Of a DNA stretch of 64,000 nucleotides, positions 1-61,259 are shown one piece after another. Position 1 is the first letter of the stretch. Each line of letters starts with the position of its first letter. This DNA comes from a virus (lineage: Duplodnaviria > Heunggongvirae > Uroviricota > Caudoviricetes), in IMG/VR virus record IMGVR_UViG_2728369393_000001. One strand, written 5' to 3'. The notes under the pieces are model-generated. The model was not told the origin of the DNA, did no database searches, and saw nothing but the letters and a program-made list of their open reading frames with translations. The translations under genes and the position numbers were made by a program.

Positions 1-68
1 GTCCGCAGGGCGGGGTGACAAGTTACTTATCTTACAATGAGGCTTCACAACATTGATTAGGGAAAATC

Positions 69-503
69 ATGTCTGACGTCTCAACAAACCTCTATAAGAG
101 TCAGTTGTTGGACTATTACTATCAGCGGCGCGCTGAATCGTCCATTAACAAAGGCTCTCGATTTTTAATCAGCAAGGCCGTTTTCGGTACCAGTTCACTG
201 GTTACTAAGAAAGGAGATGGCACTTATGAGATTGGAGAACTGCCAAAGGCTTTCGATCTGGCAGAACTGACCAGTCAATTTTGCACCATCAACCTCGTCC
301 CAACCTACTCAGGCGGGATAATTACTGTCCGAATGGACCTTGATCAAAGTCAGTTGCAGGAAGGGAAAAACTACCCATTCAACACTCTGGTTGTTCTGGA
401 TAACGAGAATAAGCCAATCGCCATTATTTGTGTCCAAGAAGACTCGCTGTATGTGGGCAAAACATATACCGCAGTTATGGCCATAAACTCGACTACAGCA
501 TAA
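69..503 (+). CDS. tail fibre operon protein immediately upstream of the tail fibre gene (P1 R-like by position)
   Basis: 144-aa ORF with ATG at 69, ends 12 bp before tail fibre start; no diagnostic motif. Confidence 0.4.
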   Translation: MSDVSTNLYKSQLLDYYYQRRAESSINKGSRFLISKAVFGTSSLVTKKGDGTYEIGELPKAFDLAELTSQFCTINLVPTYSGGIITVRMDLDQSQLQEGKNYPFNTLVVLDNENKPIAIICVQEDSLYVGKTYTAVMAINSTTA

Positions 504-514
504 GGATATGCTTG

Positions 515-3133
515 ATGAATGACGTTACAGTTGTTACATCGGTTACTTACCCATCACCCGAGTCGTTGGCTCTGGTGGCTGATGTGCAATACCACGAACC
601 ATATCTGTCAGCCGCTCTAAACCGAAAATTCAGGGGAATTGTTGACCCGGGATTTTATGCTGGTTTCTTGCCTAAGCCTGGCGGTGGAATGAACCTGTTA
701 ATCACCTCAGTGGATGGAGATAAAACCGCTGGCGCGGCGTCAGTGGATATTGGTGAATTCTACCAGGTAACTATTCAGCATCGTAAGGATATCTCTCTTG
801 CACTTAACGCAGGCAAGAAATATGCAATTGTGCTGAAGGGAAGATACCTTCTTGGAGAAGATACCTATCAGGTGAATACCGCGTCACATATTCATGCAGC
901 TGAATTTGTTGCCAGAACCTATACCGATTCATATCAGTTAGGTGATGGGGAACTGCTGGTTTGTACGGTGAATATCCCTGCTGGCGTATCTACCATTACT
1001 CAAGAGATGATTGATACATCCGAGCGTATCAACCGCACGATCGGCATTGATATTTCAGACTCTGTAACCAGTACCAGAAGTGATGTTGCTGCGAGTTCGC
1101 TGGCAGTTAAAAAAGCCTACGATCTGGCGAAAAGCAAATATACGGCGCAGGATGCAAGCACAACGCAAAAGGGATTAGTTCAGCTCAGTAGTGCCACTAA
1201 CAGTACGTCCGAAGTGCTGGCCGCCACACCGAAAGCTGTCAAGGCTGCATATGACCTGGCTAACGGGAAGTATACAGCCCAGGATGCAACCACGACACAA
1301 AAAGGGATAGTTCAGCTCAGTAGCGACACCAACAGCACTTCTGAAACATTAGCTGCAACTCCAAAAGCGGTTAAAGCTGCATACGATCTAGCAGCCGGAA
1401 AGGCACCATCCAGTCATACACATCCCTGGAATCAGATCACTGGTGTGCCAACAGCTTCATTGACAGCGAAAGGCATCACTCAGCTCAGTAGTGCCACTAA
1501 CAGCACGTCTGAAGTGCTGGCCGCCACACCGAAAGCTGTCAAGGCTGCATATGACCTGGCTAACGGGAAGTATACAGCCCAGGATGCAACCACGACACAA
1601 AAAGGGATAGTTCAGCTCAGTAGCGACACCAACAGCACTTCTGAAACATTAGCTGCAACTCCAAAAGCGGTTAAAGCTGCATACGATCTAGCAGCCGGAA
1701 AGGCACCATCCAGTCATACACATCCCTGGAATCAGATCACTGGTGTGCCAACAGCTTCATTGACAGCGAAAGGCATCACTCAGCTCAGTAGTGCCACTAA
1801 CAGCACGTCTGAAGTGCTGGCCGCCACACCGAAAGCTGTCAAGGCTGCATATGACCTGGCTAACGGGAAGTATACAGCCCAGGATGCAACCACGACACAA
1901 AAAGGGATAGTTCAGCTCAGTAGCGACACCAACAGCACTTCTGAAACATTAGCTGCAACTCCAAAAGCGGTTAAAGCTGCATACGATCTAGCAGCCGGAA
2001 AGGCACCATCCAGTCATACACATCCCTGGAATCAGATCACTGGTGTGCCAACAGCTTCATTGACAGCGAAAGGCATCACTCAGCTCAGTAGTGCCACTAA
2101 CAGTACGTCCGAAGTGCTGGCCGCCACACCGAAAGCTGTCAAGGCTGCATATGATTTGGCTAACGGGAAGTATACAGCCCAGGATGCAACCACGACACAA
2201 AAAGGGATAGTTCAGCTCAGTAGCGACACCAACAGCACTTCTGAAACATTAGCTGCAACTCCAAAAGCGGTTAAAGCTGCATACGATCTAGCAGCCGGAA
2301 AGGCACCATCCAGTCATACACATCCCTGGAATCAGATCACTGGTGTGCCAACAGCTTCATTGACAGCGAAAGGCATCACTCAGCTCAGTAGTGCCACTAA
2401 CAGCACGTCTGAAGTGCTGGCCGCCACACCGAAAGCTGTCAAGGCTGCATATGATTTGGCTAATGGAAAGCAAGCGGCAGACGCTACGCTCACTGCTCTA
2501 GCGGCACTAGCTACAGCAGCAGATAAACTCCCTTATTTCACAGGTGTTGATCGTGCCGCGTTAACTGCATTGACAAGTGTTGGACGCGCCATTCTTGGTA
2601 AGACCAGTATTCAGAGCGTTCTTGATTACCTTGGTTTAGGGGAAGGCTCGGCGCTGCCCGTTGGTGTACCTATTCCATGGCCCTCAGCCACACCGCCAAC
2701 GGGGTGGCTGAAATGCAATGGTGCAGCATTTTCTTCTGAAAAGTACCCAAATCTGGCAAAGGTTTACCCAACGTTAAAATTACCTGATTTACGCGGTGAG
2801 TTTATCCGTGGCTGGGATGATGGGCGAGGGATTGACTCTGGTCGCTCTATTTTAAGCGAGCAAGGATATGCAACGGAGGATCATGCTCACGGATTACCGT
2901 CAAAATCAACCGTAGCAACTGACCGCTCAATTAATTTCTACTTTGACGAGGCATGGGCTACTAGTGGTAATACGGGAGTTATCAGATGGGGGAACACAAG
3001 CGATGCAGGATTGCCAGCCCCTAATTATGGAACTTTTAAAACATATAAACAGTCCGTAGCTAATTTAGGTACTGCTGGCTTAGAAACCCGCCCTCGTAAT
3101 ATTGCATTTAATTATATTGTGAGGGCGGATTAA
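515..3133 (+). CDS. S: tail fibre protein: constant N-terminal part with 100-aa tandem repeats fused to the currently expressed variable C-terminal collar / receptor-binding domain
   Basis: ATG (MNDVTVV) 29 codons into track ORF 428..3133; repeats KAVKAAYDLA..TQKGIVQLSS; C-terminus GEGSALPVGVPIPWP..TGWLKCNGAAFSS..RGEFIRGWDDGRG (tail collar-like) ending RPRNIAFNYIVRAD. Confidence 0.88.
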   Translation: MNDVTVVTSVTYPSPESLALVADVQYHEPYLSAALNRKFRGIVDPGFYAGFLPKPGGGMNLLITSVDGDKTAGAASVDIGEFYQVTIQHRKDISLALNAGKKYAIVLKGRYLLGEDTYQVNTASHIHAAEFVARTYTDSYQLGDGELLVCTVNIPAGVSTITQEMIDTSERINRTIGIDISDSVTSTRSDVAASSLAVKKAYDLAKSKYTAQDASTTQKGLVQLSSATNSTSEVLAATPKAVKAAYDLANGKYTAQDATTTQKGIVQLSSDTNSTSETLAATPKAVKAAYDLAAGKAPSSHTHPWNQITGVPTASLTAKGITQLSSATNSTSEVLAATPKAVKAAYDLANGKYTAQDATTTQKGIVQLSSDTNSTSETLAATPKAVKAAYDLAAGKAPSSHTHPWNQITGVPTASLTAKGITQLSSATNSTSEVLAATPKAVKAAYDLANGKYTAQDATTTQKGIVQLSSDTNSTSETLAATPKAVKAAYDLAAGKAPSSHTHPWNQITGVPTASLTAKGITQLSSATNSTSEVLAATPKAVKAAYDLANGKYTAQDATTTQKGIVQLSSDTNSTSETLAATPKAVKAAYDLAAGKAPSSHTHPWNQITGVPTASLTAKGITQLSSATNSTSEVLAATPKAVKAAYDLANGKQAADATLTALAALATAADKLPYFTGVDRAALTALTSVGRAILGKTSIQSVLDYLGLGEGSALPVGVPIPWPSATPPTGWLKCNGAAFSSEKYPNLAKVYPTLKLPDLRGEFIRGWDDGRGIDSGRSILSEQGYATEDHAHGLPSKSTVATDRSINFYFDEAWATSGNTGVIRWGNTSDAGLPAPNYGTFKTYKQSVANLGTAGLETRPRNIAFNYIVRAD
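1165..2460 (+). repeat. tandem direct repeat, 300-bp unit, about 4.3 near-identical copies, inside the tail fibre CDS
   Basis: cagctcagtagtgccactaacag recurs at about 1189, 1489, 1789, 2089, 2389; copies differ by a few SNPs. Confidence 0.9.
2619..2644 (+). other. Hin/Gin-family recombination crossover site at the expressed tail fibre locus (constant/variable junction)
   Basis: TTCTTGATTACC-TT-GGTTTAGGGGAA; left half resembles hix-type half-site, right half is shared with all silent cassette sites; homology to cassettes begins exactly at the TT core. Confidence 0.7.
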
Positions 3134-3138
3134 TTATA

Positions 3139-3750
3139 TCAACTGGCTGTAGAAAGTTGTTTTTCAGGCCAGTTGAGATCTGGTGCCGTGGTTAAATCCA
3201 TCGCGTTCAGCTCGTCTATATAATCTAGCACGGAGTTAAGCTGCGTGGTTTCTGCCTGCGTCAACTTCCGTCCAGCCCGTAATTTCAACTGAATCAGACT
3301 AATGGAATCCATCGCAGTATCAATCAATGACTGACGTTTTGTTTCTGCTGCCTCTACAGCTGCACTATGTTGAGCCTCAGTATCAACCACCCATTTCTCT
3401 CCATCCCATTTGTCGTATGGTGTTAGCGGGGCGATAGTGGTTGTATTTTCCGGATAGTCACCCAACACCGTGATTTCTTCGGGATTCCCAGTGTCAATGC
3501 TATAGACAGTTTCGCCACGATGATCTGGCACATACTCCCATGAACTTAAATCCTCTGAACGGAGAATCGCATAACCTGCTTTATGTGAGCCTGGAGCATC
3601 CAAACAAGAATTTGCCGGAATACCAACGCCAACAGCAAGATATTCAGTTGATGCAGAAATATATTCCCGATTACCACCATCATAGTTATAAACGATAATG
3701 TTTCCTGCCTGTATGGCTATAAGTTCGCTATTTAATATCGCATTATCCAT
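3139..3750 (-). CDS. tail fibre assembly protein (Tfa / U-like chaperone) belonging to silent cassette 1
   Basis: 203 aa, ATG; directly downstream of cassette 1 on the minus strand; Tfa-like conserved C-terminal region. Confidence 0.7.
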   Translation of the reverse strand: MDNAILNSELIAIQAGNIIVYNYDGGNREYISASTEYLAVGVGIPANSCLDAPGSHKAGYAILRSEDLSSWEYVPDHRGETVYSIDTGNPEEITVLGDYPENTTTIAPLTPYDKWDGEKWVVDTEAQHSAAVEAAETKRQSLIDTAMDSISLIQLKLRAGRKLTQAETTQLNSVLDYIDELNAMDLTTAPDLNWPEKQLSTAS

Positions 3751-3760
3751 TATGCTGCTC

Positions 3761-4211
3761 TCACAATATAATTGAAGGCAATGTTACGTGGGCGGGTTTC
3801 ATTCCCCCAGATAACTCCGTTCTGTATTGACTGGTAAATTTACCATTAATCGCTCCTTGCCGGACGGCGTTATCTGTCGACAACAGACTATCCCCCCCTC
3901 TGTCATTTGGCACCAATACCGTGTTATCCCACGCGTCCCATGACCGAATATTATGATAATGACTTCCTGTTAACCACCCCTGTATGCTTAAGATGACCCT
4001 TCCCGCATCCACACCTCGCCCATCATCCCAACCACGGATAAACTCACCGCGTAAATCCGGTAATTTATTGGTGGGGTAGGCCTTTGCCAGTTTGGGATAC
4101 ATTTCAGAAGAAAATGCTGCACCATTGCATTTTAGCCAGCCCGTTGGTGGTGTTTCTAAGGGCCACGGAACGGGCACACCAACAGGCAGTGCAGAGCCTT
4201 CCCCAAACCAA
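3761..4211 (-). other. silent tail fibre C-terminal cassette 1 (promoterless gene segment); 1-bp deletion at the junction puts it out of frame relative to the other cassettes
   Basis: encodes GEGSALPVGVPVPWPLETPPTGWLKCNGAAFSSEMYPKLAKAYPTNKLPDLRGEFIRGWDDGRG..; junction reads ttccccaaacc (C4) where other copies have C5 or CCCCT. Confidence 0.75.
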
Positions 4212-4223
4212 CGTTTTTATGCC
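4199..4223 (-). other. cassette crossover site 1 (inverted relative to the expressed-locus site)
   Basis: plus strand TTCCCCAAACC-AA-CGTTTTTATGCC; contains the stop codon of cassette 2. Confidence 0.65.
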
Positions 4224-4687
4224 GCCCTTACGATGTAATTAAATGCAATATTACGGGGCGGGTTTCAGATGCTGTACGAACTGAGCGAGAGGCGTCGAAT
4301 GTCCAGTTATAAGAGCCATAACCCTCAATAATTTCCGTTTCCTTTAGGCCTGTAGATAATACTTGACCATGTTGACTAAATGGCCCTGAACTAAGTACAT
4401 CTCTAAAAAGCTGAGTACGCCCGAAAGAACCAACAATATTCTGAATTGCATCATTCTGTGCAGATAATAAATTACGGCCAGAGTCAATCCCCCGCCCGTC
4501 ATCCCAGCCGCGAATAAATTCGCCCGTAGATCCGGCAATTTATTAGTAGGGTAAACCTTTGCCAGATTTGGGTACTTTTCAGAAGAAAATGCTGCACCAT
4601 TGCATTTCAGCCACCCCGTTGGCGGTGTGGCTGAGGGCCATGGAACAGGTACACCAACGGGCAGTGCCGAGCCTTCCCCCAAACCAA
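4212..4687 (-). pseudogene. silent tail fibre cassette 2, degenerate (two internal -1 frameshifts)
   Basis: conserved N-part intact to PDLR, then frame lost (cgggcgaa where others have cggggcgaa); second 1-bp loss before the terminal RPRNIAFNYIVRAA motif. Confidence 0.7.
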
Positions 4688-4699
4688 CGTTTTTATGCC
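4674..4699 (-). other. cassette crossover site 2
   Basis: TTCCCCCAAACC-AA-CGTTTTTATGCC. Confidence 0.65.
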
Positions 4700-5174
4700 G
4701 CCCTTACGATGTAATTAAATGCGATATTTCGTGGACGGGTTTCACTCCCGCCAGTATTACCAATACTCCCTCGAGAATGAAGTGTCGGTGATGGAATCAA
4801 ATTCCCTCCTGTATTTGAGGCATCAAGCCCCCGTCCTTGTGTGTATGTTTTTTTGAAAATTGTCGCCAGCTCCCATTCATCTTTTGTGTCGTAACCATCA
4901 TTGGCTACAACAATATGTCGGTGCTTTTCCAGCATTCCTGTCTGAATGCTCAATAAAGCACGTCCCGCATCCACCCCGCGCCCATCATCCCAGCCGCGAA
5001 TAAATTCTCCCCGTAAATCCGGTAATTTATTGGTGGGGTAGGCCTTTGCCAGTTTGGGATACATTTCAGAAGAAAATGCTGCTCCGTTACATTTCAGCCA
5101 CCCCGTTGGCGGTGTTTCTAAGGGCCACGGAACGGGCACGCCAACGGGCAATGCTGAGCCTTCCCCCAAACCAA
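4693..5174 (-). other. silent tail fibre C-terminal cassette 3 (intact)
   Basis: in-frame from junction GEGSALPVGVPVPWP to ..TRPRNIAFNYIVRAA stop; track ORF 4693..5169. Confidence 0.8.
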
Positions 5175-5186
5175 CGTTTTTATGCC
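5161..5186 (-). other. cassette crossover site 3
   Basis: TTCCCCCAAACC-AA-CGTTTTTATGCC. Confidence 0.65.
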
Positions 5187-5688
5187 GCCCTTACGATATA
5201 ATTAAATGCAACGTTGCGAGGGCGAGTTTCTGTACCTACATTTCCACTAATTTCACCATAACGTTTAACACTACGAGAGCTAATAGCTCGTAGTGAGGAA
5301 GGCACCTTATGACCGGGTTCGTCCGTTTTAACTATTCCCCCGTCACCGTATGTAGCTAGTATTCCTGGATTTACGCCTTCCCGTGCACTTCCTGCGGCGA
5401 GTCCGTCCCCTGTCCATAATTCCATATAGTGTGCATGGTCCAAAATTGTGTGTGGCTGCCAATTAAGCAAAGCGCGGCCAGCATCCACCCCGCGCCCATC
5501 ATCCCAGCCACGGATAAATTCACCGCGTAAATCAGGTAATTTTAACGTTGGGTAAACCTTTGCCAGATTTGGGTACTTTTCAGAAGAAAATGCTGCACCA
5601 TTGCATTTCAGCCACCCCGTTGGCGGTGTGGCTGAGGGCCATGGAATAGGTACACCAACGGGCAGCGCCGAGCCTTCCCCTAAACCAA
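5180..5688 (-). other. silent tail fibre C-terminal cassette 4 (intact; conserved part nearly identical to the expressed copy)
   Basis: hand translation 5488..5690 has no stop; encodes GEGSALPVGVPIPWPSATPPTGWLKCNGAAFSSEKYPNLAKVYPTLKLPDLRGEFIRGWDDGRGVDAGRALL..RPRNVAFNYIVRAA. Confidence 0.8.
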
Positions 5689-5700
5689 CGTTTTCATGCC
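5675..5700 (-). other. cassette crossover site 4
   Basis: TTCCCCTAAACC-AA-CGTTTTCATGCC. Confidence 0.65.
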
Positions 5701-6127
5701 GCCCTTACGATATAATTAAACGCAATGTTACGAGGACGAATGGTTACATAATTAACCCCATCACCTCGTGAAGGCCCTGCAAATGAAAAACGGGAAAATC
5801 CTGGTTGGTTAGAAACAATTTGGTCATAGTTATTGATTGAATGACCAGACCCAATGTCGAAATTACCTCCGTAATGAGAAAAACTTGTACCATCCTGCCC
5901 TGAAAGCAGGGTACGTCCCGCATCAATCCCGCGCCCATCATCCCAGCCACGGATAAATTCACCGCGTAAATCCGGTAATTTATTGGTGGGGTAGGCTTTT
6001 GCCAGTTTGGGATACATTTCAGAAGAAAATGCTGCACCATTGCATTTTAGCCAGCCCGTTGGTGGTGTTTCTAAGGGCCACGGAACGGGCACACCAACAG
6101 GCAGTGCAGAGCCTTCCCCCAAACCAA
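5694..6127 (-). other. silent tail fibre C-terminal cassette 5 (intact)
   Basis: track ORF 5694..6122, GEGS..RPRNIAFNYIVRAA. Confidence 0.8.
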
Positions 6128-6139
6128 CGTTTTTATGCC
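6114..6139 (-). other. cassette crossover site 5
   Basis: TTCCCCCAAACC-AA-CGTTTTTATGCC. Confidence 0.65.
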
Positions 6140-6566
6140 GCCCTTACGATGTAATTAAATGCGATATTTCGCGGCCTGACAGCAACAAAATTTATACCAT
6201 CACCTACAGAGTTACTGGTGAAATTAAATCGTGAAAATCCTGGCTGATTTCCGACGATGCCATCATGAAAATTAATTGCGTGCCCTGCACCATCGCCTAT
6301 ATTTCCGGCACGCTGAGAAAAGTTTGTAGCCTCTTGGCTGCTTAATAATGCTCGCCCATTGTCCACACCTCGTCCATCATCCCAACCTCGAATAAATTCG
6401 CCCCGTAGATCCGGCAATTTATTAGTGGGGTAAACCTTTGCCAGATTTGGGTACTTTTCAGAAGAAAATGCTGCTCCGTTACATTTCAGCCACCCCGTTG
6501 GTGGTGTGGCGGAGGGCCATGGAACAGGTACACCAACGGGCAGCGCCGAGCCTTCCCCTAAACCAA
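6133..6566 (-). other. silent tail fibre C-terminal cassette 6 (intact)
   Basis: track ORF 6133..6417 starts at an internal TTG; hand translation shows the frame stays open up to the junction. Confidence 0.75.
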
Positions 6567-6578
6567 CGTTTTTATGCC
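6553..6578 (-). other. cassette crossover site 6
   Basis: TTCCCCTAAACC-AA-CGTTTTTATGCC. Confidence 0.65.
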
Positions 6579-7038
6579 GCCCTTACGATATAATTAAAGG
6601 CAATATTACGAGGACGGTTTTCATTAGCTGTTGGCACGACACGAGAGGCGTCGAATCCAAGGTCATCGGTTTTGCCTATATCAGTTGTGTTATTCGGCAT
6701 TCTCGCAGATCGTGTTCCTGCATCATAAAAAGCCCCTCTGATTGCATCAAAAGACATGCCAATCCCGCCATCGGCGAACCCCTCAATATTTCTTATTGCA
6801 TCCCCCTGTGAAGATAATAATTGTCGCCCGGCATCCACACCACGTCCGTCATCCCAGCCACGAATAAATTCACCGCGTAAATCCGGCAATTTATTAGTAG
6901 GGTAAGCCTTTGCCAGATTTGGGTACTTTTCAGAAGAAAATGCTGCTCCGTTACATTTCAGCCACCCCGTTGGCGGAGTGGCTGAGGGCCACGGAACAGG
7001 TACGCCAACAGGCAATGCTGAGCCTTCCCCCAAACCAA
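6572..7038 (-). other. silent tail fibre C-terminal cassette 7 (intact)
   Basis: track ORF 6572..7033, GEGS..NRPRNIAFNYIVRAA. Confidence 0.8.
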
Positions 7039-7050
7039 CGTTTTTATGTG
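7025..7050 (-). other. cassette crossover site 7
   Basis: TTCCCCCAAACC-AA-CGTTTTTATGTG. Confidence 0.6.
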
Positions 7051-7552
7051 GCCCTTACAATGTAATTAAAAGCAACGTTGCGGGGGCGCATTGATATCCA
7101 TGCCCCGGTAAAATTATCCTCTGCCGTCCTTTGAGTGCCTGTTATGGAGTTATCTGATGATGCTGGAACATAATCGCTATTATCTCCTGCTTTAGGATTA
7201 GCAGGGTTTCCAACAGTTATAACAGAATCAGCAGTAGCATAAGCGATACCTACTTTGACATTAGTAGTCAGATCGACACCGTAATAATCCTGCAAAGCTG
7301 TACGAATAAATGTTGCAGTCTGACCACTTAGCAATGAACGCCCTGTATCAATCCCTCTCGAATCATCCCAACCACGGATAAACTCACCGCGTAAATCAGG
7401 TAATTTTAACGTTGGGTAAACCTTTGCCAGATTTGGGTACTTTTCAGAAGAAAATGCTGCTCCGTTACATTTCAGCCACCCCGTTGGTGGTGTGGCGGAG
7501 GGCCACGGAACAGGCACACCAACGGGCAGCGCCGAGCCTTCCCCTAAACCAA
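7044..7552 (-). other. silent tail fibre C-terminal cassette 8 (invertase-proximal)
   Basis: track ORF 7044..7517 plus upstream conserved junction; ends MRPRNVAFNYIVRAT. Confidence 0.75.
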
Positions 7553-7564
7553 CGTTTTAGTCTT
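7539..7564 (-). other. cassette crossover site 8, last of the array, 55 bp from the invertase start
   Basis: TTCCCCTAAACC-AA-CGTTTTAGTCTT. Confidence 0.6.
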
Positions 7565-7618
7565 AATCCCTACCTATACCAACGATGTATTTTTAACTAA
7601 ACAAAGAGGTTGTTTTTC

Positions 7619-8191
7619 ATGCAAATTGGCTACATTCGTGTGTCAACAAATGACCAAAACACAGATTTACAAAGAAATGCACTGAATTGCGCAGGATGTG
7701 AACTGATTTTTGAAGATAAAATAAGCGGAACAAAGTCAGCCAGACCAGGCTTGAAAAAGCTGCTCAGAACGTTATCAGAAGGAGATACGCTGGTTGTCTG
7801 GAAGCTGGATAGGCTTGGCAGAAGTATGAAACACCTTATCACGCTTATAGAGGAGTTGCGGGAAAAAGGTGTTAATTTCCGTAGTCTGACAGACAGTATT
7901 GACACATCAACACCCATGGGGCGTTTCTTTTTTCATGTCATGGGTGCTTTAGCAGAAATGGAACGTGAATTAATTGTTGAGAGAACACTGGCCGGACTGG
8001 CAGCTGCACGCGAACAGGGACGCATTGGCGGACGTCGCCCGAAGTTGACAAAAGAACAACATGAGCAAATAGCGAGGTTGATCGAAAATGGCTACAGCAG
8101 GAAACAGTTGGCAATTATTTACGATATCGGTGTATCGACGATTTATCGTTATCATCCTGTAGAGAAGCGCCAAACTCAATCTGAGCTGTAA
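7619..8191 (+). CDS. cin: serine recombinase DNA invertase (Hin/Gin/Cin/Pin/Min family)
   Basis: MQIGYIRVSTNDQNTDLQ (catalytic Ser), C-terminal HTH; ATG at 7619 with AGAGG RBS; adjacent to the cassette array. Confidence 0.9.
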   Translation: MQIGYIRVSTNDQNTDLQRNALNCAGCELIFEDKISGTKSARPGLKKLLRTLSEGDTLVVWKLDRLGRSMKHLITLIEELREKGVNFRSLTDSIDTSTPMGRFFFHVMGALAEMERELIVERTLAGLAAAREQGRIGGRRPKLTKEQHEQIARLIENGYSRKQLAIIYDIGVSTIYRYHPVEKRQTQSEL

Positions 8192-8626
8192 TTCTAATGC
8201 CGCGTCGGTGTAATTTATCTTGATAGAATAGGTACATTTATCGCGCGGCACATCAATTCGATGTATCTAGCGCCTGCTGACCGCTAATGAAAACTGTTCT
8301 CGAAATGTTGTCCCTAGTCCGAGACTAGGGTATCACCTCTGGAAAGCATACGCAGAACCTTTTTTAACCCAGGGTGCCCAGTTTTTTTGCTGCTCGCCTT
8401 ATTCGCAAAAATTAGCTCACATCCTGCGCTTTCAAGTGCTTTTCACTGCATAGCTGTGTTTTGTTCATTTGTCTATATGCATACATAGCCTATTAACATA
8501 TTTTCTGCCCACTATCGTTATTTATTGCAAGCTACAGGTTTTAATTAACAAAACCAGTGTGTGTGGAAATCACAAAGTGCATACCGTTCTCAAATGTTGT
8601 TCAACTTACTGTTGTATAGGTAAAAA

Positions 8627-8890
8627 ATGACATTTTATGTACATATCGTGATGTTATCCCTTCTTGGTGGGGTGTATTCGTATTTGAGTGGGCTATGTGA
8701 AAACCGTTACGAGTCTTCATGCAAGAAATTGCTGGCCGAATGTATTTCCGCCGTACTTGCTGGCTTTATTGGCATGTATCTCGCGGAATATAAGGACATG
8801 AATGAAAGCCTTCAGAGCTGCATGGTTCTTATTTTCAGCGCCAATAGCAGGCTTATTATTGAAGGTTCCAAAAGTCGGTTGAATAGGTAA
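8627..8890 (+). CDS. small membrane protein upstream of the holin gene
   Basis: 87-aa hydrophobic ORF. Confidence 0.35.
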   Translation: MTFYVHIVMLSLLGGVYSYLSGLCENRYESSCKKLLAECISAVLAGFIGMYLAEYKDMNESLQSCMVLIFSANSRLIIEGSKSRLNR

Positions 8891-8964
8891 GTCTCTTATG
8901 CAACATAACCGGTTGAGAAGTTACTTTGCATACCATTACCTCCTGACAACGTAGGAGGGAACTT

Positions 8965-9294
8965 GTGCTTGACACACAGGAATTAGCTCCAGTTGCTATT
9001 GCGCTCCTGCTTTCAGTAATTGGTGGGATAGGCACGTTCCTGATGGATGTCCGAGACGGTCGCCAGTCTGGCAATTTGTTGGGATTGGTTACGGAGATCT
9101 TTGTTGCAGTGACAGCTGGCGCGGTGGCGTACCTATTGGGGCAACACGAGGGCTGGGAGTTATCAATTACGTACTTAATGGTAACGATAGCCAGCAATAA
9201 CGGTCATGAGGTGATTTCAGGGATGAAACGAGTGAATATCGATAGCATTCTGAATGTTCTTACAAGTTTGGTGAAAAAGGGAGGCGGGAAATGA
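8965..9294 (+). CDS. lydA: holin-like membrane protein (P1 LydA-like)
   Basis: 109 aa with hydrophobic segments; position between invertase and darA operon; length matches recalled LydA. Confidence 0.55.
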   Translation: MLDTQELAPVAIALLLSVIGGIGTFLMDVRDGRQSGNLLGLVTEIFVAVTAGAVAYLLGQHEGWELSITYLMVTIASNNGHEVISGMKRVNIDSILNVLTSLVKKGGGK

Positions 9295-9734
9295 TTGGCT
9301 GGGGTGTATGCGTTCTTGCGTTAGCCTTAGCCGATCGCTATTTGCTAAAACGCAAGGACATCACGCATTTAGAACTTGGTGATGTGGAAATTAAACCGGG
9401 TTTCATCCGGGTGCCGTTCAAATACCGGTCTAAATTCCCGTTTTTGCGCGGCGCAACGGTCAGATATTGGATCCGCGATGTTCAGAAGCCGACGACAGTG
9501 ATTGAAGGCGAACAACGTTGTTTGACGTCGGCTGAACAGGGCGAAAACAGTGAATGGTTGTACATACCCACTGAATATATGGGTAAAGGAGAGCGACTGT
9601 GGCATTTCAACGTCATGGTTACGCATGGCGACTCGTTCATTAACCCGTTGTATCGGATTTTCCCTGTTACTCAGCAAATCCGCAGAAGTTACGTAATAAA
9701 TCTCGCACAGGATGTGTCAGATGACGAAAAATAA
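9291..9734 (+). CDS. lydB: antiholin-like protein (P1 LydB-like)
   Basis: 147 aa; start overlaps lydA stop; synteny. Confidence 0.5.
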   Translation: MIGWGVCVLALALADRYLLKRKDITHLELGDVEIKPGFIRVPFKYRSKFPFLRGATVRYWIRDVQKPTTVIEGEQRCLTSAEQGENSEWLYIPTEYMGKGERLWHFNVMVTHGDSFINPLYRIFPVTQQIRRSYVINLAQDVSDDEK

Positions 9735-10323
9735 GTATGCAACGGTCGATTTTGACCAGGTTAATGAAAAGGGGCTGAAATCCCTTATCGCGGCGATCAA
9801 TAAAACCGGTGTTACGGTAATTGAGGTTGACTCCAGCAACCGCGCAACAACGAAAGATGGCGTTAAAGTTAAAACCGCAAAGCTGGTTCTTAACGACGGA
9901 CAAATTCTTGCCATACAGGTAAACGATACTGGCGATATATCGTCTGTGAGGCTGAATGGAAAAGCTATTCCTAACGCTCAGTCGCCGGATATCAAGACGC
10001 TTGGTACCGTCATGGGGCAAGCGGCCCGCAAAAACTCCGCAAAATTCCAGAAATCACTGATCGCCAAAGCGAAACGTGTTGCCAATCCGGTAGACAAGAA
10101 ACCGGCAGTAAAATCCAACTTTCAGCGCCTGCAAGAGGCAAAACAGCGGAATGCTCAGGTGGTTGCCGCTTATAAATCAGCGCAGAACTCGGTGTCTTTC
10201 AATCAACAGCAGATCACTGATTTGCGGGCGAAGCTGGATAAGGAGACAGGCCGACTCAATAACGAAAAGGCCCGAAATGGCGAACTCAAACGCCGTCTTA
10301 AGCAACTGAAAGCAGGAAATTAA
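9721..10323 (+). CDS. hdf: Hdf-like protein (shares a segment with DarA)
   Basis: ATG 3 codons into track ORF 9712..10323; KNSAKFQ segment shared with the downstream DarA; coiled-coil C-terminus. Confidence 0.55.
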   Translation: MTKNKYATVDFDQVNEKGLKSLIAAINKTGVTVIEVDSSNRATTKDGVKVKTAKLVLNDGQILAIQVNDTGDISSVRLNGKAIPNAQSPDIKTLGTVMGQAARKNSAKFQKSLIAKAKRVANPVDKKPAVKSNFQRLQEAKQRNAQVVAAYKSAQNSVSFNQQQITDLRAKLDKETGRLNNEKARNGELKRRLKQLKAGN

Positions 10324-10324
10324 C

Positions 10325-12244
10325 ATGGAACAGTTCAATATCAATAAAGGGGTGACGATCAAGCCTGGGCTTGACGTGCTTCCCCCGCCAGTGACTGATG
10401 ATGAATATCGCGCATTAATGGCCGGTGAGGACCGCTATCTGATGACGGAATCCAACACCCTGGAGGAAATCGAGGCTACGTTCTTCTATGACACGCCGAT
10501 CCACTGGTGTGCTACGGATTTACTGGAGGCGATTAGTTCTACTCGTTTGCAGTTACACCGGACCATGCAGGCATTTGTCCGGGCATTGAACCAGAAGCTG
10601 AATGGTACCGGAATCTCTGCGGGGAGTGATAAAACGGGGGATGTGGCCCAGAGCGGCGCGCGCGCGATCGGCGGTGCTGAAATTGGCCGGGCACGTAACG
10701 TTAACGGGCTGCCGGTCCTGCCAGCCATTATTCCGCTCAGTGATGGTCAGACTATCAGCATTCTGTTTCATAGCCCGACAGCGGAAAACCGGATCACCAA
10801 TAGCGATACGCTGGTTGCTTTCCAGTTCTTACTGAATAAAAAAGACGTTACTCACACCGTTGCTCCGATGAGTGGACGTGATATGACGCTGGCGCAGGTC
10901 ACCATGAAACTTGCCAACCTTGCAGAGAAAAACTCGGCAAAATTCCAGCGTGCGCAGAAGAAGAAAAAAGCCCTTGTTGATGAAATAACCCAACTACAGG
11001 CTGACAGTGACCAGAAAGAGGACGCCATGAGCGACCTCGCGGATCAGGTGGCAGCGGTAGAAGGGCAGAAGGCAGATCTGGAGCAGAAAATTAACGCTGT
11101 TGCATCGGAAGCGGATTCTCTTTATGAAGAGAATGAGCGTTTGCAGGGGGAGATTGATCGGCTCAATCGCACTGGTGGGCGCGATACCATTGCCCCTGCG
11201 GGGATGACTGGTGGGCACTCTCGCGCGCTGACGGATCGCCTTGCCAGTATCAAAAATCGTATGCATATGGACGGGGAAGCGACGCTCAGTAATGGTGCAT
11301 CAATGAAGCAATTCATTGGGGACGGCGAAGGGTATATCCAGTTAACCGATCCGGATGGCAGCGTATACATGATCAAGGCTAAATCCATACAGGGTGTGGA
11401 CATGGCAGATGCGATCGGCAAGCTGTTTAAAGCCTATAAAGCGGGTAATGTATCGGAATACCTGGTCCAACCAGAAGAACATAAACCGGAAAACGTCGAA
11501 CCTGAACCAGCGGAGGATACCGGTAGCTCTTCGCCTGAACCAGAAGTCTCTGTAGGTGCATATCGATATGCCCTGCAAATGCGTCCGGCGGCCCCTGGCG
11601 CAATACCTGAAGGTAACAAAGCAATTCTGCCGCGCCCTGATGAAGGTGACCCGTATTATGAATATGCACGCTACGGCATTGCTACTTACGATACCCCGCT
11701 TTCTGATCAGCAAATGAGTGAGTACGACCTGAAGTTATTGCCTCGCGAGGATTCTTTCGATTTCCTGGCGAAGACACTTACTAATGGTCCGTTTGGCAAA
11801 TATGCACAAAAAGCTCTGGAGCTGGCCACCAGCTCACCAGACGAGTTCCGCGTAATGCTGAAAACTCAGTTTCAAAAAACTTTCCCCAATATTGCGTTTC
11901 CTGGGGGCGCTGGCACCGAGAAAATGGTGCAGAGCATGATCAATGCATTGCAGGCCGAAGTCGGTGAGATTACTCAGCCAGAACCGGCCCCGGCACAGCC
12001 TGATGAAACGGTTAGCGAAGCAGATGCAGAGGCTAATAAAGCCATTGAATATCTCAATAACGTGATGGATATGCAAAGCACTGACATGGCGGAGATCCGT
12101 AACGCCCGGGGCAATGTCCGGGAAGCGATTGCAGCCCTTCAGGCTGCCGGACGTTTTGAGGAAAACGAAGAGCTGGTTAACGGCGCAGCTCGCCACCTGG
12201 CTGATCTGTTGGTAGCAATCCAGAAAGCGGGGGTAGCGGCATGA
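10325..12244 (+). CDS. darA: DarA-like capsid-packaged antirestriction protein
   Basis: 639 aa; position after lydAB-hdf; size and synteny consistent with P1 DarA. Confidence 0.7.
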   Translation: MEQFNINKGVTIKPGLDVLPPPVTDDEYRALMAGEDRYLMTESNTLEEIEATFFYDTPIHWCATDLLEAISSTRLQLHRTMQAFVRALNQKLNGTGISAGSDKTGDVAQSGARAIGGAEIGRARNVNGLPVLPAIIPLSDGQTISILFHSPTAENRITNSDTLVAFQFLLNKKDVTHTVAPMSGRDMTLAQVTMKLANLAEKNSAKFQRAQKKKKALVDEITQLQADSDQKEDAMSDLADQVAAVEGQKADLEQKINAVASEADSLYEENERLQGEIDRLNRTGGRDTIAPAGMTGGHSRALTDRLASIKNRMHMDGEATLSNGASMKQFIGDGEGYIQLTDPDGSVYMIKAKSIQGVDMADAIGKLFKAYKAGNVSEYLVQPEEHKPENVEPEPAEDTGSSSPEPEVSVGAYRYALQMRPAAPGAIPEGNKAILPRPDEGDPYYEYARYGIATYDTPLSDQQMSEYDLKLLPREDSFDFLAKTLTNGPFGKYAQKALELATSSPDEFRVMLKTQFQKTFPNIAFPGGAGTEKMVQSMINALQAEVGEITQPEPAPAQPDETVSEADAEANKAIEYLNNVMDMQSTDMAEIRNARGNVREAIAALQAAGRFEENEELVNGAARHLADLLVAIQKAGVAA

Positions 12245-12606
12245 CACTATCAGCTATTGAGTTAATGGATCTCAGCGATAAGTTGGATGCTCTGATGTCC
12301 AAAGCGGCTACCGCGAGTGGTATGGAGTTGCTGGATATCAGCGATGAAATTGACCAGATCATGCAACAGATGGGGTACGGCGCGTCCGGCGGTGGTAGTG
12401 GCGAGGAAAAACAACCTTCGGAACATGATGGTGTGCCAAAACTGGTTGCTGATTTCCTGGCTGATAAATTCGTCGATCAGAGCACCGATGCATTTATCGG
12501 TACCTTGCAGGATTTGAATCAATATGTTGGCACATACATCGACCTGGACCAGGTTAAACAGCACACGGCGGCATGGATAGCCGCCAACATTAAAGAGGCA
12601 GCATAA
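12241..12606 (+). CDS. ddrA: DdrA-like protein
   Basis: 121 aa, start overlaps darA stop (ATGA). Confidence 0.55.
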   Translation: MTLSAIELMDLSDKLDALMSKAATASGMELLDISDEIDQIMQQMGYGASGGGSGEEKQPSEHDGVPKLVADFLADKFVDQSTDAFIGTLQDLNQYVGTYIDLDQVKQHTAAWIAANIKEAA

Positions 12607-12618
12607 GGCGTAACAGGG

Positions 12619-15606
12619 ATGAGCTTAAGCGATCAGGTGGTAATGGCCACCAGCATAGAAACGCTGATCGAGCTGCTAAAGAACCTGCCCGATTATGGGC
12701 GGGTTTCGTATGTGGTGACAGCGAAGGGAGACGAGGTAAAAACAGCGTTTGATATCGTCGATGCCTCAGCTCTTTTGGTATCCAATACTCTGGATGGGAA
12801 AATTAATCCTGACTATCCCCAGGAACTTCAACCGCGCGACCGGACCCGCGCATCCAGCCTTCTTCAGGTTAACCAGATATCCAAAGATTTGCGGCCTGCT
12901 CAGCTTACTGATTCCGGTTTATCCAGCCATGGCGCGCCGATAATTGGTGAGGACAATGCCGTTGAGTCAGGTAATGGGAGGACCATGGGGATCATTAAAG
13001 CCTATCAGGACGGTAATGCGGATCGGTATCGGGAGTACCTGATTGAACATGCGACCGAATTCGGAATACGACCTGAAAAGGTTGAATCAATGACGGCTCC
13101 GGTACTGGTGCGCCGCCGGTTAACGAAGGTTGACCGTGTTCAGTTTGCCAAGGACTCAAATATTTCTGATCTCCAGGAAATGGCAGCCAGTGAAAAGGCT
13201 TTTGTTGATGCCGACAGCATAACTCCGGCGATGATGGCGCTGTTTAACCCATCAGAAAGCGGAGATCTGCTTAGCCGCAGTAATGACGCGTTTATTCGCG
13301 GATTCATGACGCAAGTTGGTGCCACACAGGCTGCTGGCCTTGTAACGGAAGATGGGCGACCAACACGGCAACTTGTTGACCGTATACAAAACGCGATCTT
13401 TGCCAAGGCATATAAGGATGCGCGCCTGGTAAGAATGGTTGCAGAAGAACCTGATCCGGATATGCGTAATGTTCTGACGGCGCTTAATGCGGCAGCCAAT
13501 GATTTTGTCCAGATGCAGGCTTTATCAGGAGAAGCGCACAAGCAGGCTGTGACAACTATTGTTGATGGTATTGAGACAGCGGATAGTCTCGATAAAAAGG
13601 CGCTGGCGGCATTGAAAGATGCGGTAGACCTGGTAAGGCAATCGAAGGAGTCAGGCCAACATATTACCGATGTTATTGCTCAGGGGGATATGTTCAGCGA
13701 AACAGCCCCGGAAGTGAAAGCTCTCGCGTTGTTCATCGTCGCGAATAACCGTAGCGCGAAGCGTATGGCCACCGCCTTTAAATTGATGGCTCAACGTATC
13801 AATGATGAGTTACAGCACCAGGGCCAGGCGCTGGGGGATATGTTTGGCGGTGGTGATGTGTCGTTACAGGATATCCTTCGCCAGGTGTCTCAGGAACTGG
13901 AAAACGAAGGCATGCAAGGGATATCCGGCGGTCTTTTCGAGTCCGTTTCCGGCGGTAGTTACAACGGTGTTGCTCCATATACCAGCTTGCTATTACATCG
14001 GGCATCCGGCATCAAAGACATTATTCATCTGATCAGGCTGCTTTCCCGTACAGATCCCCAGGATGAACAGCTTGTACAAGTGCTTGCGCATTTTGTTCGA
14101 ATGCCTGTTGCCGACGTGAATAAATGGTGCCGATTATTCGGTATCAGCAATTCGTTACTTCGCGGATTGTTAAATCACGCATCCTCCCTTGGGCGCGACG
14201 GCTTTGATGAGATAGCGCAGGCGATAAAAAACGGAGATATGCCACCAGCTATTGACTGGTTTTCCATTCGCCCAACCAGGGTGAAAGCATTCCTTAGCGC
14301 GGCGCATTCGGCATCACCATTGGCAGAAATGGTTCAGAGGTTGTCGCTCATATTCACAGACCATACCGCGTTGGGTGATCTGACTCTGGACGAGATGAAA
14401 GAAGCCTCCATTCAGTGGGCCGATCAACAAAATGAGGTTAACTCTGACTTCTTGCCAGCATTCAGGAAGGCCGTTAGTAAAGCGGATGATGCCCGTGGAA
14501 TTCTGAAGGCATTTAAGGCATTGCAAAGTCGTGTTAATAAACATGTCGGTGATATCGATGGGGTAACGGCGGAAGGCCGGGATATCCTTAAAGAGCACGG
14601 CATAACGCCAGAGTTTATTGATGAGATCAGGACGGATATGCAGCGTGAGGTCGTATCGTCCCTGCAAATCGTAGCCAGAGCGTTGGCGGATGCTAATCCG
14701 AAGAGTGCGGCCATTGTTAACCGGGTTATTGGTGATATTGAAGCATCGGAGGGCATGGGGGCGCTGAAACTCTTCCTTTCGCGAGCGTTTAATCCTAACG
14801 GCAATATTCTCCCTGGCATTATTGGTGAGGCTAAAAAGTATGTCAGTGAAGAAGAACTTGAGCAGCTTGACCAACTACTTAAGCGATTCTCATATAACCC
14901 GCAGACACGCTGGCAAATGAATCAGCGAAGTATGGGTTCGGTCCACGAGAAAGTGTTATCTGCCATGAACAGTGCGATCGCCAACTCATCCGTATCTGAA
15001 GAAAAAGCTCTTGAGTGGGCCGACTCTTTTATCACGGAAGAAGTGGAAGAAGCCCGCGCTGGACAGAATGGTGGGATAGACCTGCGCAAGGAACTTGCTG
15101 ATATTTATCGCCTGACCGGCGGTAAAATTTCGACCTTAACAAAGGTGGTTCACCACCAGGGAAGGGCATATGCAAATCTTAATGGTGTTGTTGCTGTCAA
15201 TTTGAACGATGAAAATGCAAGTGCACTGTGGCACGAGCTGGGTCATCATCTTGAGTACAGTAACCCTGGTTTGTTAGAGAAAGCCCGGTCATTCCTGAAG
15301 GCCAATGTTGAAGGGGATAAGCCATCTTTCGTTAATATCGGTGGGCGTGGCAAGCCTGAATGGTGCTTCAGATCTCGATTGAGTAATATTTATATGGCGA
15401 AGGTATACCCGCCAGCCTCAGTGAGTAATTCCGGGAAAATTCGGCAGAAATCACCGACTATTTCCAAAACGTCAGCAACGGAAGTATTCTCTATGGCTCT
15501 TCAGTTGTATCATGACAAAGAGGCCGCTGCCGCATCACTGATGAATGGTGACGGATTGCTGGAACTGTTATTAGGTGTGGCAAAGGAGCTAAATAATGCA
15601 GATTAA
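12619..15606 (+). CDS. ddrB: DdrB-like large protein of the darA operon
   Basis: 995 aa, ATG at 12619; synteny. Confidence 0.65.
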   Translation: MSLSDQVVMATSIETLIELLKNLPDYGRVSYVVTAKGDEVKTAFDIVDASALLVSNTLDGKINPDYPQELQPRDRTRASSLLQVNQISKDLRPAQLTDSGLSSHGAPIIGEDNAVESGNGRTMGIIKAYQDGNADRYREYLIEHATEFGIRPEKVESMTAPVLVRRRLTKVDRVQFAKDSNISDLQEMAASEKAFVDADSITPAMMALFNPSESGDLLSRSNDAFIRGFMTQVGATQAAGLVTEDGRPTRQLVDRIQNAIFAKAYKDARLVRMVAEEPDPDMRNVLTALNAAANDFVQMQALSGEAHKQAVTTIVDGIETADSLDKKALAALKDAVDLVRQSKESGQHITDVIAQGDMFSETAPEVKALALFIVANNRSAKRMATAFKLMAQRINDELQHQGQALGDMFGGGDVSLQDILRQVSQELENEGMQGISGGLFESVSGGSYNGVAPYTSLLLHRASGIKDIIHLIRLLSRTDPQDEQLVQVLAHFVRMPVADVNKWCRLFGISNSLLRGLLNHASSLGRDGFDEIAQAIKNGDMPPAIDWFSIRPTRVKAFLSAAHSASPLAEMVQRLSLIFTDHTALGDLTLDEMKEASIQWADQQNEVNSDFLPAFRKAVSKADDARGILKAFKALQSRVNKHVGDIDGVTAEGRDILKEHGITPEFIDEIRTDMQREVVSSLQIVARALADANPKSAAIVNRVIGDIEASEGMGALKLFLSRAFNPNGNILPGIIGEAKKYVSEEELEQLDQLLKRFSYNPQTRWQMNQRSMGSVHEKVLSAMNSAIANSSVSEEKALEWADSFITEEVEEARAGQNGGIDLRKELADIYRLTGGKISTLTKVVHHQGRAYANLNGVVAVNLNDENASALWHELGHHLEYSNPGLLEKARSFLKANVEGDKPSFVNIGGRGKPEWCFRSRLSNIYMAKVYPPASVSNSGKIRQKSPTISKTSATEVFSMALQLYHDKEAAAASLMNGDGLLELLLGVAKELNNAD

Positions 15607-15904
15607 AATCGCAGCGCCATTAGGCGGAGATGCCATTATCGAATTTGATGATAATGAAGAAGTTTCCGGGCGTTTAAGCATTATCTCCGGTGACATTACC
15701 GAGGACATGATCGCTGAAGCCATAGCTGGAGCAAATCCCAATAGCTATATGGGATTCGTTAACACCCTTGATGCTCCCGCAAGTGATGTTCTCCGAACGC
15801 TGCATCTTTACGCTGGCTGGTTTGTTGATTGGCCAGCAGTAGATGGTGGCGATGAGGACGACGACGATGATTTTGGTGATCATGTAGACCAGATCGTATA
15901 TTGA
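15596..15904 (+). CDS. small acidic protein, last gene of the darA operon
   Basis: 102 aa, ATG overlapping ddrB stop; poly-acidic C-terminus (DGGDEDDDDD); followed by terminator. Confidence 0.4.
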   Translation: MQIKIAAPLGGDAIIEFDDNEEVSGRLSIISGDITEDMIAEAIAGANPNSYMGFVNTLDAPASDVLRTLHLYAGWFVDWPAVDGGDEDDDDDFGDHVDQIVY

Positions 15905-15907
15905 AGA

Positions 15908-15934
15908 AATCCCGCCAATCGGCGGATTTTTTTT
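15908..15934 (+). terminator. rho-independent terminator
   Basis: TCCCGCC-AATC-GGCGGA stem-loop followed by T8. Confidence 0.7.
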
Positions 15935-16841
15935 AATCGCTTTCCACTTCTTCCGTGGTGTTTTCTTGCAGTTCTGTTAATGCAGCACGACATAGGTTCC
16001 GGGCATTGGCTATAGCCACACTTTTGACTTCATCCGTCATCGTGCAGGTAATGTACTGATCGAGTTCTTCAGCGCGGATGATGCTTTTGCCAATCAGAAA
16101 CTGTATTTGCCAGAGCAGATCGGCATCCATAATCAGAATTTCTGCCGGGCCTTCAGGGCCAGCCGGGAAGGAAACATAAGACTGTTTGCCCAGCCCGACA
16201 ACTCGACAACTTGCTTCAAGAATTGCGCGCTTGAGGTCTGACTTTATAACGGAAACAGGTTGATTTTCACCAGTGATTACGCCGTTGACATGGAAAGGCA
16301 TGTAGCTTGAAATACGCTCTACTTTCCACACGCCAGCAAGCGATCCTTCATGCAGCACAATGGGGGTAACCGCGAGTTTCATCTCACCATATAACTGCTG
16401 GCAGATAGCTGGATTGCTGAATACATCTAAAGGCTCACATTCAAACAGCGGCGCAATCTGCATGAGGTCCATCATGGTCATCCCTGGGGTACGAGCAGTA
16501 ATGAATTTGCGCATACCAGTATCCATTGCGCTCCAGATTGCTACACCATGCTTTTTGCTCACTTCTTCAGTAAAGCCAAGGTGGCACATGATGGTTTTTT
16601 CGATAGCCAGATCAGAGATAGAAACTTTTTCGCCAGGTACTCCATCATTATTGATGGTCACTTCGACACTCTGGCCATTACGTAGGCGGTATTGAATGGT
16701 TTTAGTTTTTTGTGCTGTCATAGTCTTTTCTCTGCTTAAAAACTGATGTATTGCGTCTTCAGGTGGGTTAGGAATGTTTTCCCACCAGCGAAAGCAATAT
16801 CTCGTGGTGTTCTGTTCGTTAAAAACGCGTGCCATTGCCAA
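15933..16841 (-). CDS. hypothetical protein
   Basis: 302-aa ORF (possible internal start at MTAQKT); no motif recognised. Confidence 0.4.
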   Translation of the reverse strand: MAMARVFNEQNTTRYCFRWWENIPNPPEDAIHQFLSREKTMTAQKTKTIQYRLRNGQSVEVTINNDGVPGEKVSISDLAIEKTIMCHLGFTEEVSKKHGVAIWSAMDTGMRKFITARTPGMTMMDLMQIAPLFECEPLDVFSNPAICQQLYGEMKLAVTPIVLHEGSLAGVWKVERISSYMPFHVNGVITGENQPVSVIKSDLKRAILEASCRVVGLGKQSYVSFPAGPEGPAEILIMDADLLWQIQFLIGKSIIRAEELDQYITCTMTDEVKSVAIANARNLCRAALTELQENTTEEVESD

Positions 16842-16918
16842 CTTTGGCGTTTTTTAGCGAGTTCGTGCTTTTGTTGGCGTCTGGACCACCGCTTTTCTTT
16901 CAGTCGTTTTTTACACAT

Positions 16919-17407
16919 TCAGAACGGAATATCGTCGTCAAAGTCCATTGGAGGTTCGTTATTGGCGTTGCTCTGAGGTTTACCGCCACCACTGTATTGC
17001 TGGTGGTTTTGAGGTTGGTTTGATTGCCCCCAGCCATTTGAGGACTGTGAATCGTCACGGCGAGCGCCGATCATTTGCATGGTGCCGCCCTGGCTGACGA
17101 TAATTTCCGTCGTGTAACGTTCTACACCGGCGTCATCTGTCCACTTACGGGTTTTAAGTTTCCCTTCGATGTAGACCTGAGAACCTTTTCGTAAATACTC
17201 ACTCGCAATTTCAGCAAGTTTTCCGAACAAAACGACTTTATGCCATTCTGTTTGCTCTTTCTGTTGGCCCGTTTGCTTGTCGCGCCATGATTCATTCGTT
17301 GCGATGCTGAGTCTTCCGACCGCTCCGCCATTTGGTATATACCTGATCTCCGGGTCTTGCCCCAGGGTACCAATCAGGATGACTTTGTTTACACCGCGTT
17401 GTGCCAC
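16919..17407 (-). CDS. ssb: single-stranded DNA-binding protein
   Basis: OB-fold N-terminus, Gly/Gln-rich linker, acidic tail ending DFDDDIPF. Confidence 0.93.
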
Positions 17408-17426
17408 TTATCTTACCTAATAAAAT

Positions 17427-17443
17427 AAATTAATTAGAGCAAT
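17427..17443 (-). promoter_or_regulatory. C1 repressor operator-like site upstream of ssb
   Basis: minus strand ATTGCTCTAATTAATTT, 16/17 to recalled consensus ATTGCTCTAATAAATTT. Confidence 0.55.
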
Positions 17444-17575
17444 AATGTATATCTTTGAAACGTAGCTAACAAGTGATTTGCATTATCCTGTGCCTTCTAA
17501 AGGGATCGAGTCAGTCGGTATTGGCTGTGAATGGGTGTTGTCCTGGAGCGTAAAAAATTCGCTTATGAGGTCTTT

Positions 17576-18133: not shown

Positions 18134-18380
18134 ACTCCGGCAGCTCCGCCGACTTTCGACAATGAAGTTATCGCTGGCGGCGATAGTTTTCGACTCGATT
18201 TTCATGGCGGTATATGTGCTCAATGAGACGTGGCCACTGGAACCGCTATTATATGCCGGGCTTCGGCTGTGCCTGACATTTTTGAGCATGGCTGCAAGAT
18301 TGATGCAGCAGAAAGAAACCGCTTCAGATTGCCCACGTCGCGCGGTGCGAAAATATATGGCACGCAGACGAAGGCGATAA
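18126..18380 (+). CDS. small membrane protein with Arg-rich C-terminus downstream of lyz
   Basis: 84-aa ORF overlapping lyz stop. Confidence 0.3.
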   Translation: MNKLRQLRRLSTMKLSLAAIVFDSIFMAVYVLNETWPLEPLLYAGLRLCLTFLSMAARLMQQKETASDCPRRAVRKYMARRRRR

Positions 18381-18423
18381 TAGTTAACGAGAACCCGGCA
18401 GCCGCCGGGGTTATTTTTGATGG

Positions 18424-21154
<2,731 letters not shown>

Positions 21155-58112: not shown

Positions 58113-61259
<3,147 letters not shown>

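Follow-up and report, generated by a model that had tools for sequence, protein, structure and literature searches.

Are two of the eight silent tail-fibre tips in this invertible locus really broken, or do they only appear so in the recorded sequence? The window, by which we mean the whole 64,000-nucleotide stretch analysed (IMG/VR record IMGVR_UViG_2728369393_000001), carries at 1-8200 an ordinary multiple-inversion switch of the Min/Cin type on a P1-like IncY phage-plasmid, a locus of a known kind. Real frameshifts in silent cassettes 1 and 2 would leave two of the nine switch states producing fibres that lack a functional tip. In detail, the cassette 1 state would yield a fibre truncated after its constant part and the cassette 2 state a scrambled tip, and the repertoire would either have been caught in decay or possess a second layer of on/off control. 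A sequence-only reading of the locus had raised both of these possibilities and had named sequencing error at homopolymers as the trivial alternative.

Besides a single tfa gene and a serine invertase, the switch comprises nine tips, of which one is expressed and eight are silent. The gene for the expressed fibre (P1 S-like; 515..3133, + strand) is an open ORF with an 872-aa product. Its constant part (515-2632, + strand) has ten Pfam Phage_fiber_2 matches, and the expressed tip (2633-3133, + strand; 166 aa), in which Pfam finds a Collar domain, ends in ...NYIVRAD before the stop. The crossover site within this gene, at 2619..2644, reads TTCCCCTAAACC AA GGTAATCAAGAA on the - strand, which places the core TT at 2631-2632 on the + strand. 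Next comes tfa, the tail-fibre assembly chaperone gene (3139..3750, - strand; 203 aa; Pfam Caudo_TAP E = 3e-30). It is intact, it is the only tfa in the locus and it lies downstream of cassette 1, which is thus the only chaperone-linked cassette, as had been noted.

All silent cassettes are on the - strand. Cassette 1 (3750..4211) encodes a 153-aa tip in relatives, with the peptide ...GWLTGSHYHNIR... as an example of its sequence, and cassette 2 (4217..4687) encodes a 156-aa tip in relatives; each has two one-base deletions in the window. Cassettes 3-8 (4688..7552) are in frame and open, with tips of 159, 168, 143, 143, 154 and 168 aa, and these six, like the expressed tip, end in ...RNIAFNYIVRA(A/T/D) and a stop. 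On the + strand, the core AA of the eight silent crossover sites ends at 4211, 4687, 5174, 5688, 6127, 6566, 7038 and 7552. There are no spacers between cassettes: the TAA stop of a silent cassette (TTA on the + strand) sits within the right half-site of its neighbour, CGTTTTTATGCC (4212-4223, 4688-4699, etc.). The serine DNA invertase, of the Gin/Cin/Hin/Min kind, follows at 7619..8191 (+ strand; 190 aa; Pfam Resolvase E = 2e-51, HTH_7 E = 3e-15). It shares 75% identity with the invertase of phage D6, whose gene adjoins an annotated cixL site. The remaining window is P1 backbone, including DarA, LydB, lysozyme, SSB, portal, a Cre-like integrase, Ref and the C1 repressor. This invertible region, in the arrangement seen in the window, was not found in the phage, plasmid and complete E. 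coli collections.

The switch itself is nothing new in kind and works like Din-family invertase systems. The invertase combines an N-terminal resolvase catalytic domain with a C-terminal helix-turn-helix. The locus has nine 26-bp sites of the form TTCCCC(C/T)AAACC AA CGTTTT..., each with two 12-bp half-sites around a 2-bp core. We compared them with the consensus TTCCC.TAAAC.. / GGTTT... as printed in PMC4134206, which covers the Mu, P1, e14 and p15B sites, and the left half-site of cassette 1 falls one base short of it. The site in the expressed gene points the opposite way from the eight silent ones. Moreover, plasmid pCFSAN004176P_03 has the same backbone with cassette 1 fused in the fibre gene, and sequence identity between the two changes over at the crossover site, as expected of inversion isomers. 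The invertase swaps the 3′ end of the fibre gene at these sites, and each exchange puts one of nine receptor-binding tips in frame.

The nearest described relative of this switch is the Min system of p15B, a likeness that we draw from layout, as the invertase sequence was compared with that of D6. The p15B system has reportedly been described with six mix sites, whereas the window has nine (one expressed, eight silent). It is said to have been described by Sandmeier et al. in PNAS and by Iida et al. in Mol Microbiol, both in 1990. The passages of PMC5903667 and PMC6906374 that cite this multiple-inversion system place it on a P1-related IncY plasmid. Both loci are on IncY, P1-related prophage plasmids, and both have a small serine invertase beside overlapping invertible segments, alternative fibre 3′ ends, 26-bp sites with a 2-bp core and many possible isomers. 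The Cin/C-segment of P1 and the Gin/G-segment of Mu share with the window the Resolvase plus HTH_7 recombinase family and the swap of tfa along with the receptor-binding C-terminus of the fibre, and the backbone of the window is like that of P1 (C1 repressor, Ref, DarA, LydB and others). However, P1 and Mu switch between two alternatives that are each paired with a tfa of their own (S/U and S′/U′). In the window a single tfa accompanies nine tips, most of which have the Collar domain alone. In the prophage segments of E. coli EC958 (PMC4134206), as in the window, the Phage_fibre_2 repeats are constant, the Collar part is invertible and the half-site GGTTTGGGGGAA is the same, but these are single invertible segments in chromosomal prophages rather than a nine-site array.

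Cassettes 1 and 2 together lack four bases and not three, two in each cassette. The crossover site of cassette 1 (4199..4223, + strand) reads TTCCCC-AAACC AA CGTTTTTATGCC, with four C at 4201-4204 and its AA core at 4210-4211. Ahead of the core it has CTTCCCCAAACC, whereas the other seven silent sites have TTCCCCCAAACC or TTCCCCTAAACC (C5 or CCCCT), so the short junction that had been reported is where it was said to be. The expected outcome of an exchange, fusion in the -1 frame with a stop after about 18 codons, also holds: translation of cassette 1 from the core, kept in the frame of the constant part, yields GLGKALHCLLVCPFRGP and stops after 17 codons. The sequence-only reading had further taken the body of this cassette and its tfa gene to be intact. 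This is right for the tfa ORF, but the body has a second -1 shift at 3804..3808 (- strand), where the window has C5 (G5 on the coding strand) and relatives have a run of six. This loss leaves the terminal NETRPRNIAFNYIVRAA motif and stop of cassette 1 in a third frame and disrupts the TAATG through which the stop codon of the cassette overlaps the tfa start.

In cassette 2, the loss of a G that had been placed near 4520 is present at 4523..4525 (- strand). The window has CCC on the + strand, so GGG in coding orientation, whereas relatives carry CGGGG or CGCGG; it reads CTACGGGCGAA in place of CTACGGGGCGAA, with the shift falling between ...PDLR and GEFIRGW. A further base had been described as lost ahead of the terminal motif. 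It is indeed missing, and we locate it within that motif (ETRPRNIAFNYIVRAA), at 4255..4258 (- strand). Here the window has GGGG on the + strand, C4 in coding orientation, against 5 nt in relatives, and ACCCGCCCCGTAAT stands in place of ACCCGCCCCCGTAAT, with the shift between ETRP and RNIAFNYIVRAA.

The closest record to the window is pCFSAN004176P_03 (NZ_CP012491.1). Window 8007-57726 aligns to it with no mismatches and two gaps, and window 57626-64000 is 100% identical, so that the ~56 kb backbone (8007-64000) differs by no substitution and by two one-base gaps only. The constant part of the fibre and the sequence of the expressed tip are identical to those in pCFSAN004176P_03. At the expressed gene, identity extends to 2637, and the first difference is at 2638 because cassette 1 is fused there in pCFSAN004176P_03, a different inversion isomer. 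In that plasmid cassette 1 is the in-frame expressed tip of an annotated 859-aa tail fibre, followed by tfa. Our cassette-by-cassette comparison covered all silent cassettes except cassette 5. Cassettes 3, 4 and 6 are identical in the two plasmids, cassette 7 has three substitutions, and cassettes 1 and 2 each show no substitutions and two one-base gaps.

The two backbone gaps are also deletions in the window, and each falls in a terminator-like hairpin. One, at 15924..15925 (+ strand; GG, GGG in relatives), shortens the 3′ arm of CCCGCC...GGCGG[G]TTTTTTTT, which has a T8 tail. The other, at 18394..18396 (+ strand; CCC, CCCC in relatives), shortens the 5′ arm of AACCC[C]GGC...GCCGGGGTT. Both lie outside annotated genes. 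The hairpin stems of relatives are perfectly complementary at both places, and other P1-like plasmids agree with pCFSAN004176P_03. Over window 7554-20000, the same two gaps recur against drafts L068, L073, L067 and L070, with no mismatches for the first two and one mismatch each for the others; L072, which covers 8.4 kb of this interval, shows no mismatches and one gap. Thus, outside the shuffled cassettes and within cassettes 1 and 2, all six differences are one-base deletions in the window, in a single direction and in G/C runs, with no substitutions in ~56 kb plus the two cassettes. Insertion errors in pCFSAN004176P_03 could have produced the same picture. We rejected this explanation since all other relatives agree with pCFSAN004176P_03, among them drafts that resemble short-read assemblies, although their technology is not given.

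Comparison of the same cassettes across relatives gave longer runs at all four positions, with a single exception at the junction in one noisy contig (L047). Cassette 1 with tfa matches seven other records with no mismatches and two one-base gaps, both within the cassette, and cassette 2 matches four other records with no mismatches and two gaps; both alleles are intact in those records. The run at 3804-3808 is 6 nt in 20 of 20 relatives (16/16 in a first set of loci and 4/4 in a second). That at 4255-4258 is 5 nt in 20 of 20 (19/19 and 1/1), and at 4523-4525 the extra base is present in all 48 (39/39 and 9/9). Of the 86 sites that share the flanks of the junction, 84 have a 5-nt tract (77 from the first set, 7 from the second), and only the window and L047 have 4 nt. 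None of the 86 sites has a 6-nt variant, and in many of them the tract reads AGGGG, GGGAG or AGGAG, so that the homopolymer is interrupted. Apart from the junction of L047, the lesion states of the window are therefore singletons among 20-86 homologous sites. Intact cassettes number 210 of 219 in the first set of loci and about 19 of 23 in the second, in which 3 to 4 are broken.

Three other assemblies resemble the window in this respect. In pLAO48 (L002; NZ_OP242270.1), the fibre repeats and cassettes have lost seven single bases (8269, 9038, 10520-10920) while some 8.7 kb of flanks has lost none, and its C4 junction is in a different cassette. E1624 p3 (L008) has frameshifted cassettes and deletion clusters at 3570-5585 and 7520-7968. 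The noisy contig with the 4-nt junction, L047 (1-1500), has 9-10 other indels in 1.5 kb. In all three, the deletion clusters are confined to the fibre repeats and invertible cassettes, and the flanks are clean. We set aside draft L072 as a further example of broken cassettes, because homopolymer deletion does not simply explain its differences, which may reflect misassembly.

In combination, these comparisons make it very probable that the four frameshifting deletions are consensus or polishing errors at G/C homopolymers rather than features of the plasmid DNA. One-base homopolymer deletions without substitutions are the typical look of long-read consensus errors. We favor this explanation because relatives have the longer runs, because there are no substitutions and all six changes are deletions in G/C runs, because pCFSAN004176P_03 expresses cassette 1 in frame, and because the pLAO48, L047 and L008 assemblies show the same syndrome. 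What had been put forward as the trivial alternative is thus preferred over both biological readings, and the frameshifted cassettes appear, from sequence comparison, to be best classed as not a real feature.

A uniform error rate does not account for the distribution of the lesions. The four span ~0.7 kb and lie at most about 400 bp to either side of the junction between cassettes 1 and 2. Four indels in 0.94 kb against two in 56 kb of backbone have a Poisson probability of 3e-8 under a uniform rate, and shortened G/C runs make up 4 of ~34 in cassettes 1 and 2 vs 2 of ~1007 elsewhere in the window (Fisher p = 1.4e-5). Only 5.3% of the bases in the window are in G/C runs of 3 or more. As the lesions are strongly clustered and the backbone is nearly free of error, a local cause is needed beyond uniform error. 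Sites that cannot be polished because they lie in repeats would be one such cause, and this partly holds: three of the four lesion sites have 7-8 paralogous copies in the window. However, 3804-3808 is unique, so failed repeat polishing cannot explain everything, and both backbone deletion sites are unique as well. Counting against the error explanation as a whole, cassettes 3-8 show no frameshift despite carrying the same repeated segments as cassettes 1 and 2.

The most economical local cause of the clustering is probably a mixed population of isomers. A culture would hold several inversion isomers, and few reads would then support the adjacency of cassettes 1 and 2, whereas reads from other isomers would align badly around their junction. 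Read heterogeneity or low effective coverage of this kind in a long-read assembly may have caused the deletions. A precedent is the PacBio assembly of EC958, in which indels and substitutions clustered in an invertible tail-fibre segment where half of the reads were in the opposite orientation (PMC4134206). One-base homopolymer deletions are known to create apparent frameshifts and pseudogenes and to persist where polishing is hampered (PMC12007338, PMC8011154). The window differs from the long-read errors of these two reports in that its backbone is nearly clean and its errors are packed into 0.7 kb.

Some of the same evidence could be read as real, very recent mutations by replication slippage, private to this clone, which would just have inactivated two unexpressed cassettes. 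We regard this as unlikely. A frameshift would cost nothing at first in a cassette that is silent and so not expressed, slippage occurs naturally at G/C runs, and other assemblies have some broken cassettes (9 of 219 and 3 to 4 of 23). The position of both backbone deletions outside annotated genes is as expected of mutations filtered by selection, although it fits errors in G/C hairpins equally well. On the other hand, relaxed selection cannot lift the mutation rate above that of the backbone, where no substitutions were seen, and a count of zero in ~56 kb predicts essentially no neutral change in 0.94 kb, where four indels were found. Real divergence should also include substitutions, and both cassettes are free of them. 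That all six differences have the same direction, and that the lesion states are singletons among their homologs, argue against real mutation too. We looked up the exact products of the frameshifted ORFs in an index of 153 billion genes, with three guesses of the start codon for cassette 1 and one for cassette 2, and they were absent; the expressed 872-aa fibre was likewise absent from this index by exact look-up. Gradual decay of the repertoire, as suggested by the sequence-only reading, would leave lesions shared by descent together with substitutions. Instead, the lesions are private to the window except for the L047 junction, cassettes 1 and 2 have no substitutions relative to intact copies in seven and four records, and ~95% of ~240 cassettes are intact, so this suggestion is not borne out. 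A variant of the real-mutation account would attribute the deletions to G/C runs losing single bases more often near the inversion junction than elsewhere, perhaps because the invertase acts there frequently or because the inverted repeats form secondary structure. This would mean that silent tips are inactivated far faster than the plasmid mutates elsewhere, and that the clusters in pLAO48, E1624 p3 and L047 are biology rather than error. We consider it quite improbable.

The remaining alternative, that the C tract at the crossover site is a programmed slipped-strand switch controlling chaperone-linked cassette 1 independently of inversion, is the one to which we give the least credence, and it is hardly credible. 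The tract does sit exactly at the fusion point, and a C4 junction occurs in two other assemblies. As in slipped-strand contingency loci, the length of a G/C homopolymer in a coding region would set the frame. Known contingency loci typically have G/C tracts of 7 nt or more. By contrast, the tract here measures 5 nt where the site is intact and 4 nt at cassette 1 of the window. The homopolymer itself is not conserved, given how common the interrupted forms are, and relatives show no length polymorphism, with the 5-nt form at nearly every site. Both other C4 cases come from assemblies with many nearby one-base deletions. Because cassette 1 has a second frameshift, restoring C5 would not by itself turn it on, and a one-base change in the half-site would be expected to disturb invertase binding. 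The proposal of homopolymer on/off control is not supported by the comparison with relatives.

The same alleles are intact everywhere else and cassette 1 is in use in pCFSAN004176P_03, so the evidence points away from fibres without a working tip. The broader lesson is that invertible multi-cassette fibre regions gather uncorrected homopolymer deletions even in assemblies that are otherwise clean. Apparent pseudogenes in such regions should be taken neither as biology nor as annotation to propagate unless the reads support them.

Several further features of the locus deserve mention. The silent cassettes of pCFSAN004176P_03 are in a different order from those of the window, and cassette 8 (window 7044-7552) has no counterpart there. 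As the two plasmids have identical backbones and differ in the order and content of their cassettes, shuffling must be much faster than point mutation, and the absence of cassette 8 reflects at least one cassette loss, gain or assembly collapse. Within the constant part of the fibre there is a 300-bp tandem repeat (window 1180-2470; 4.3 copies at 98%). The lengths of fibres among relatives are widely spread (549, 757, 859, 872 aa and longer), which suggests that the copy number of this repeat varies between relatives. Finally, there is one tfa for nine tips, and the eight Collar-domain tips other than that of cassette 1 have no linked chaperone. In the isomer represented by the window, tfa converges on the currently expressed tip (window 2633-3750) and is thus antisense to the fibre operon.
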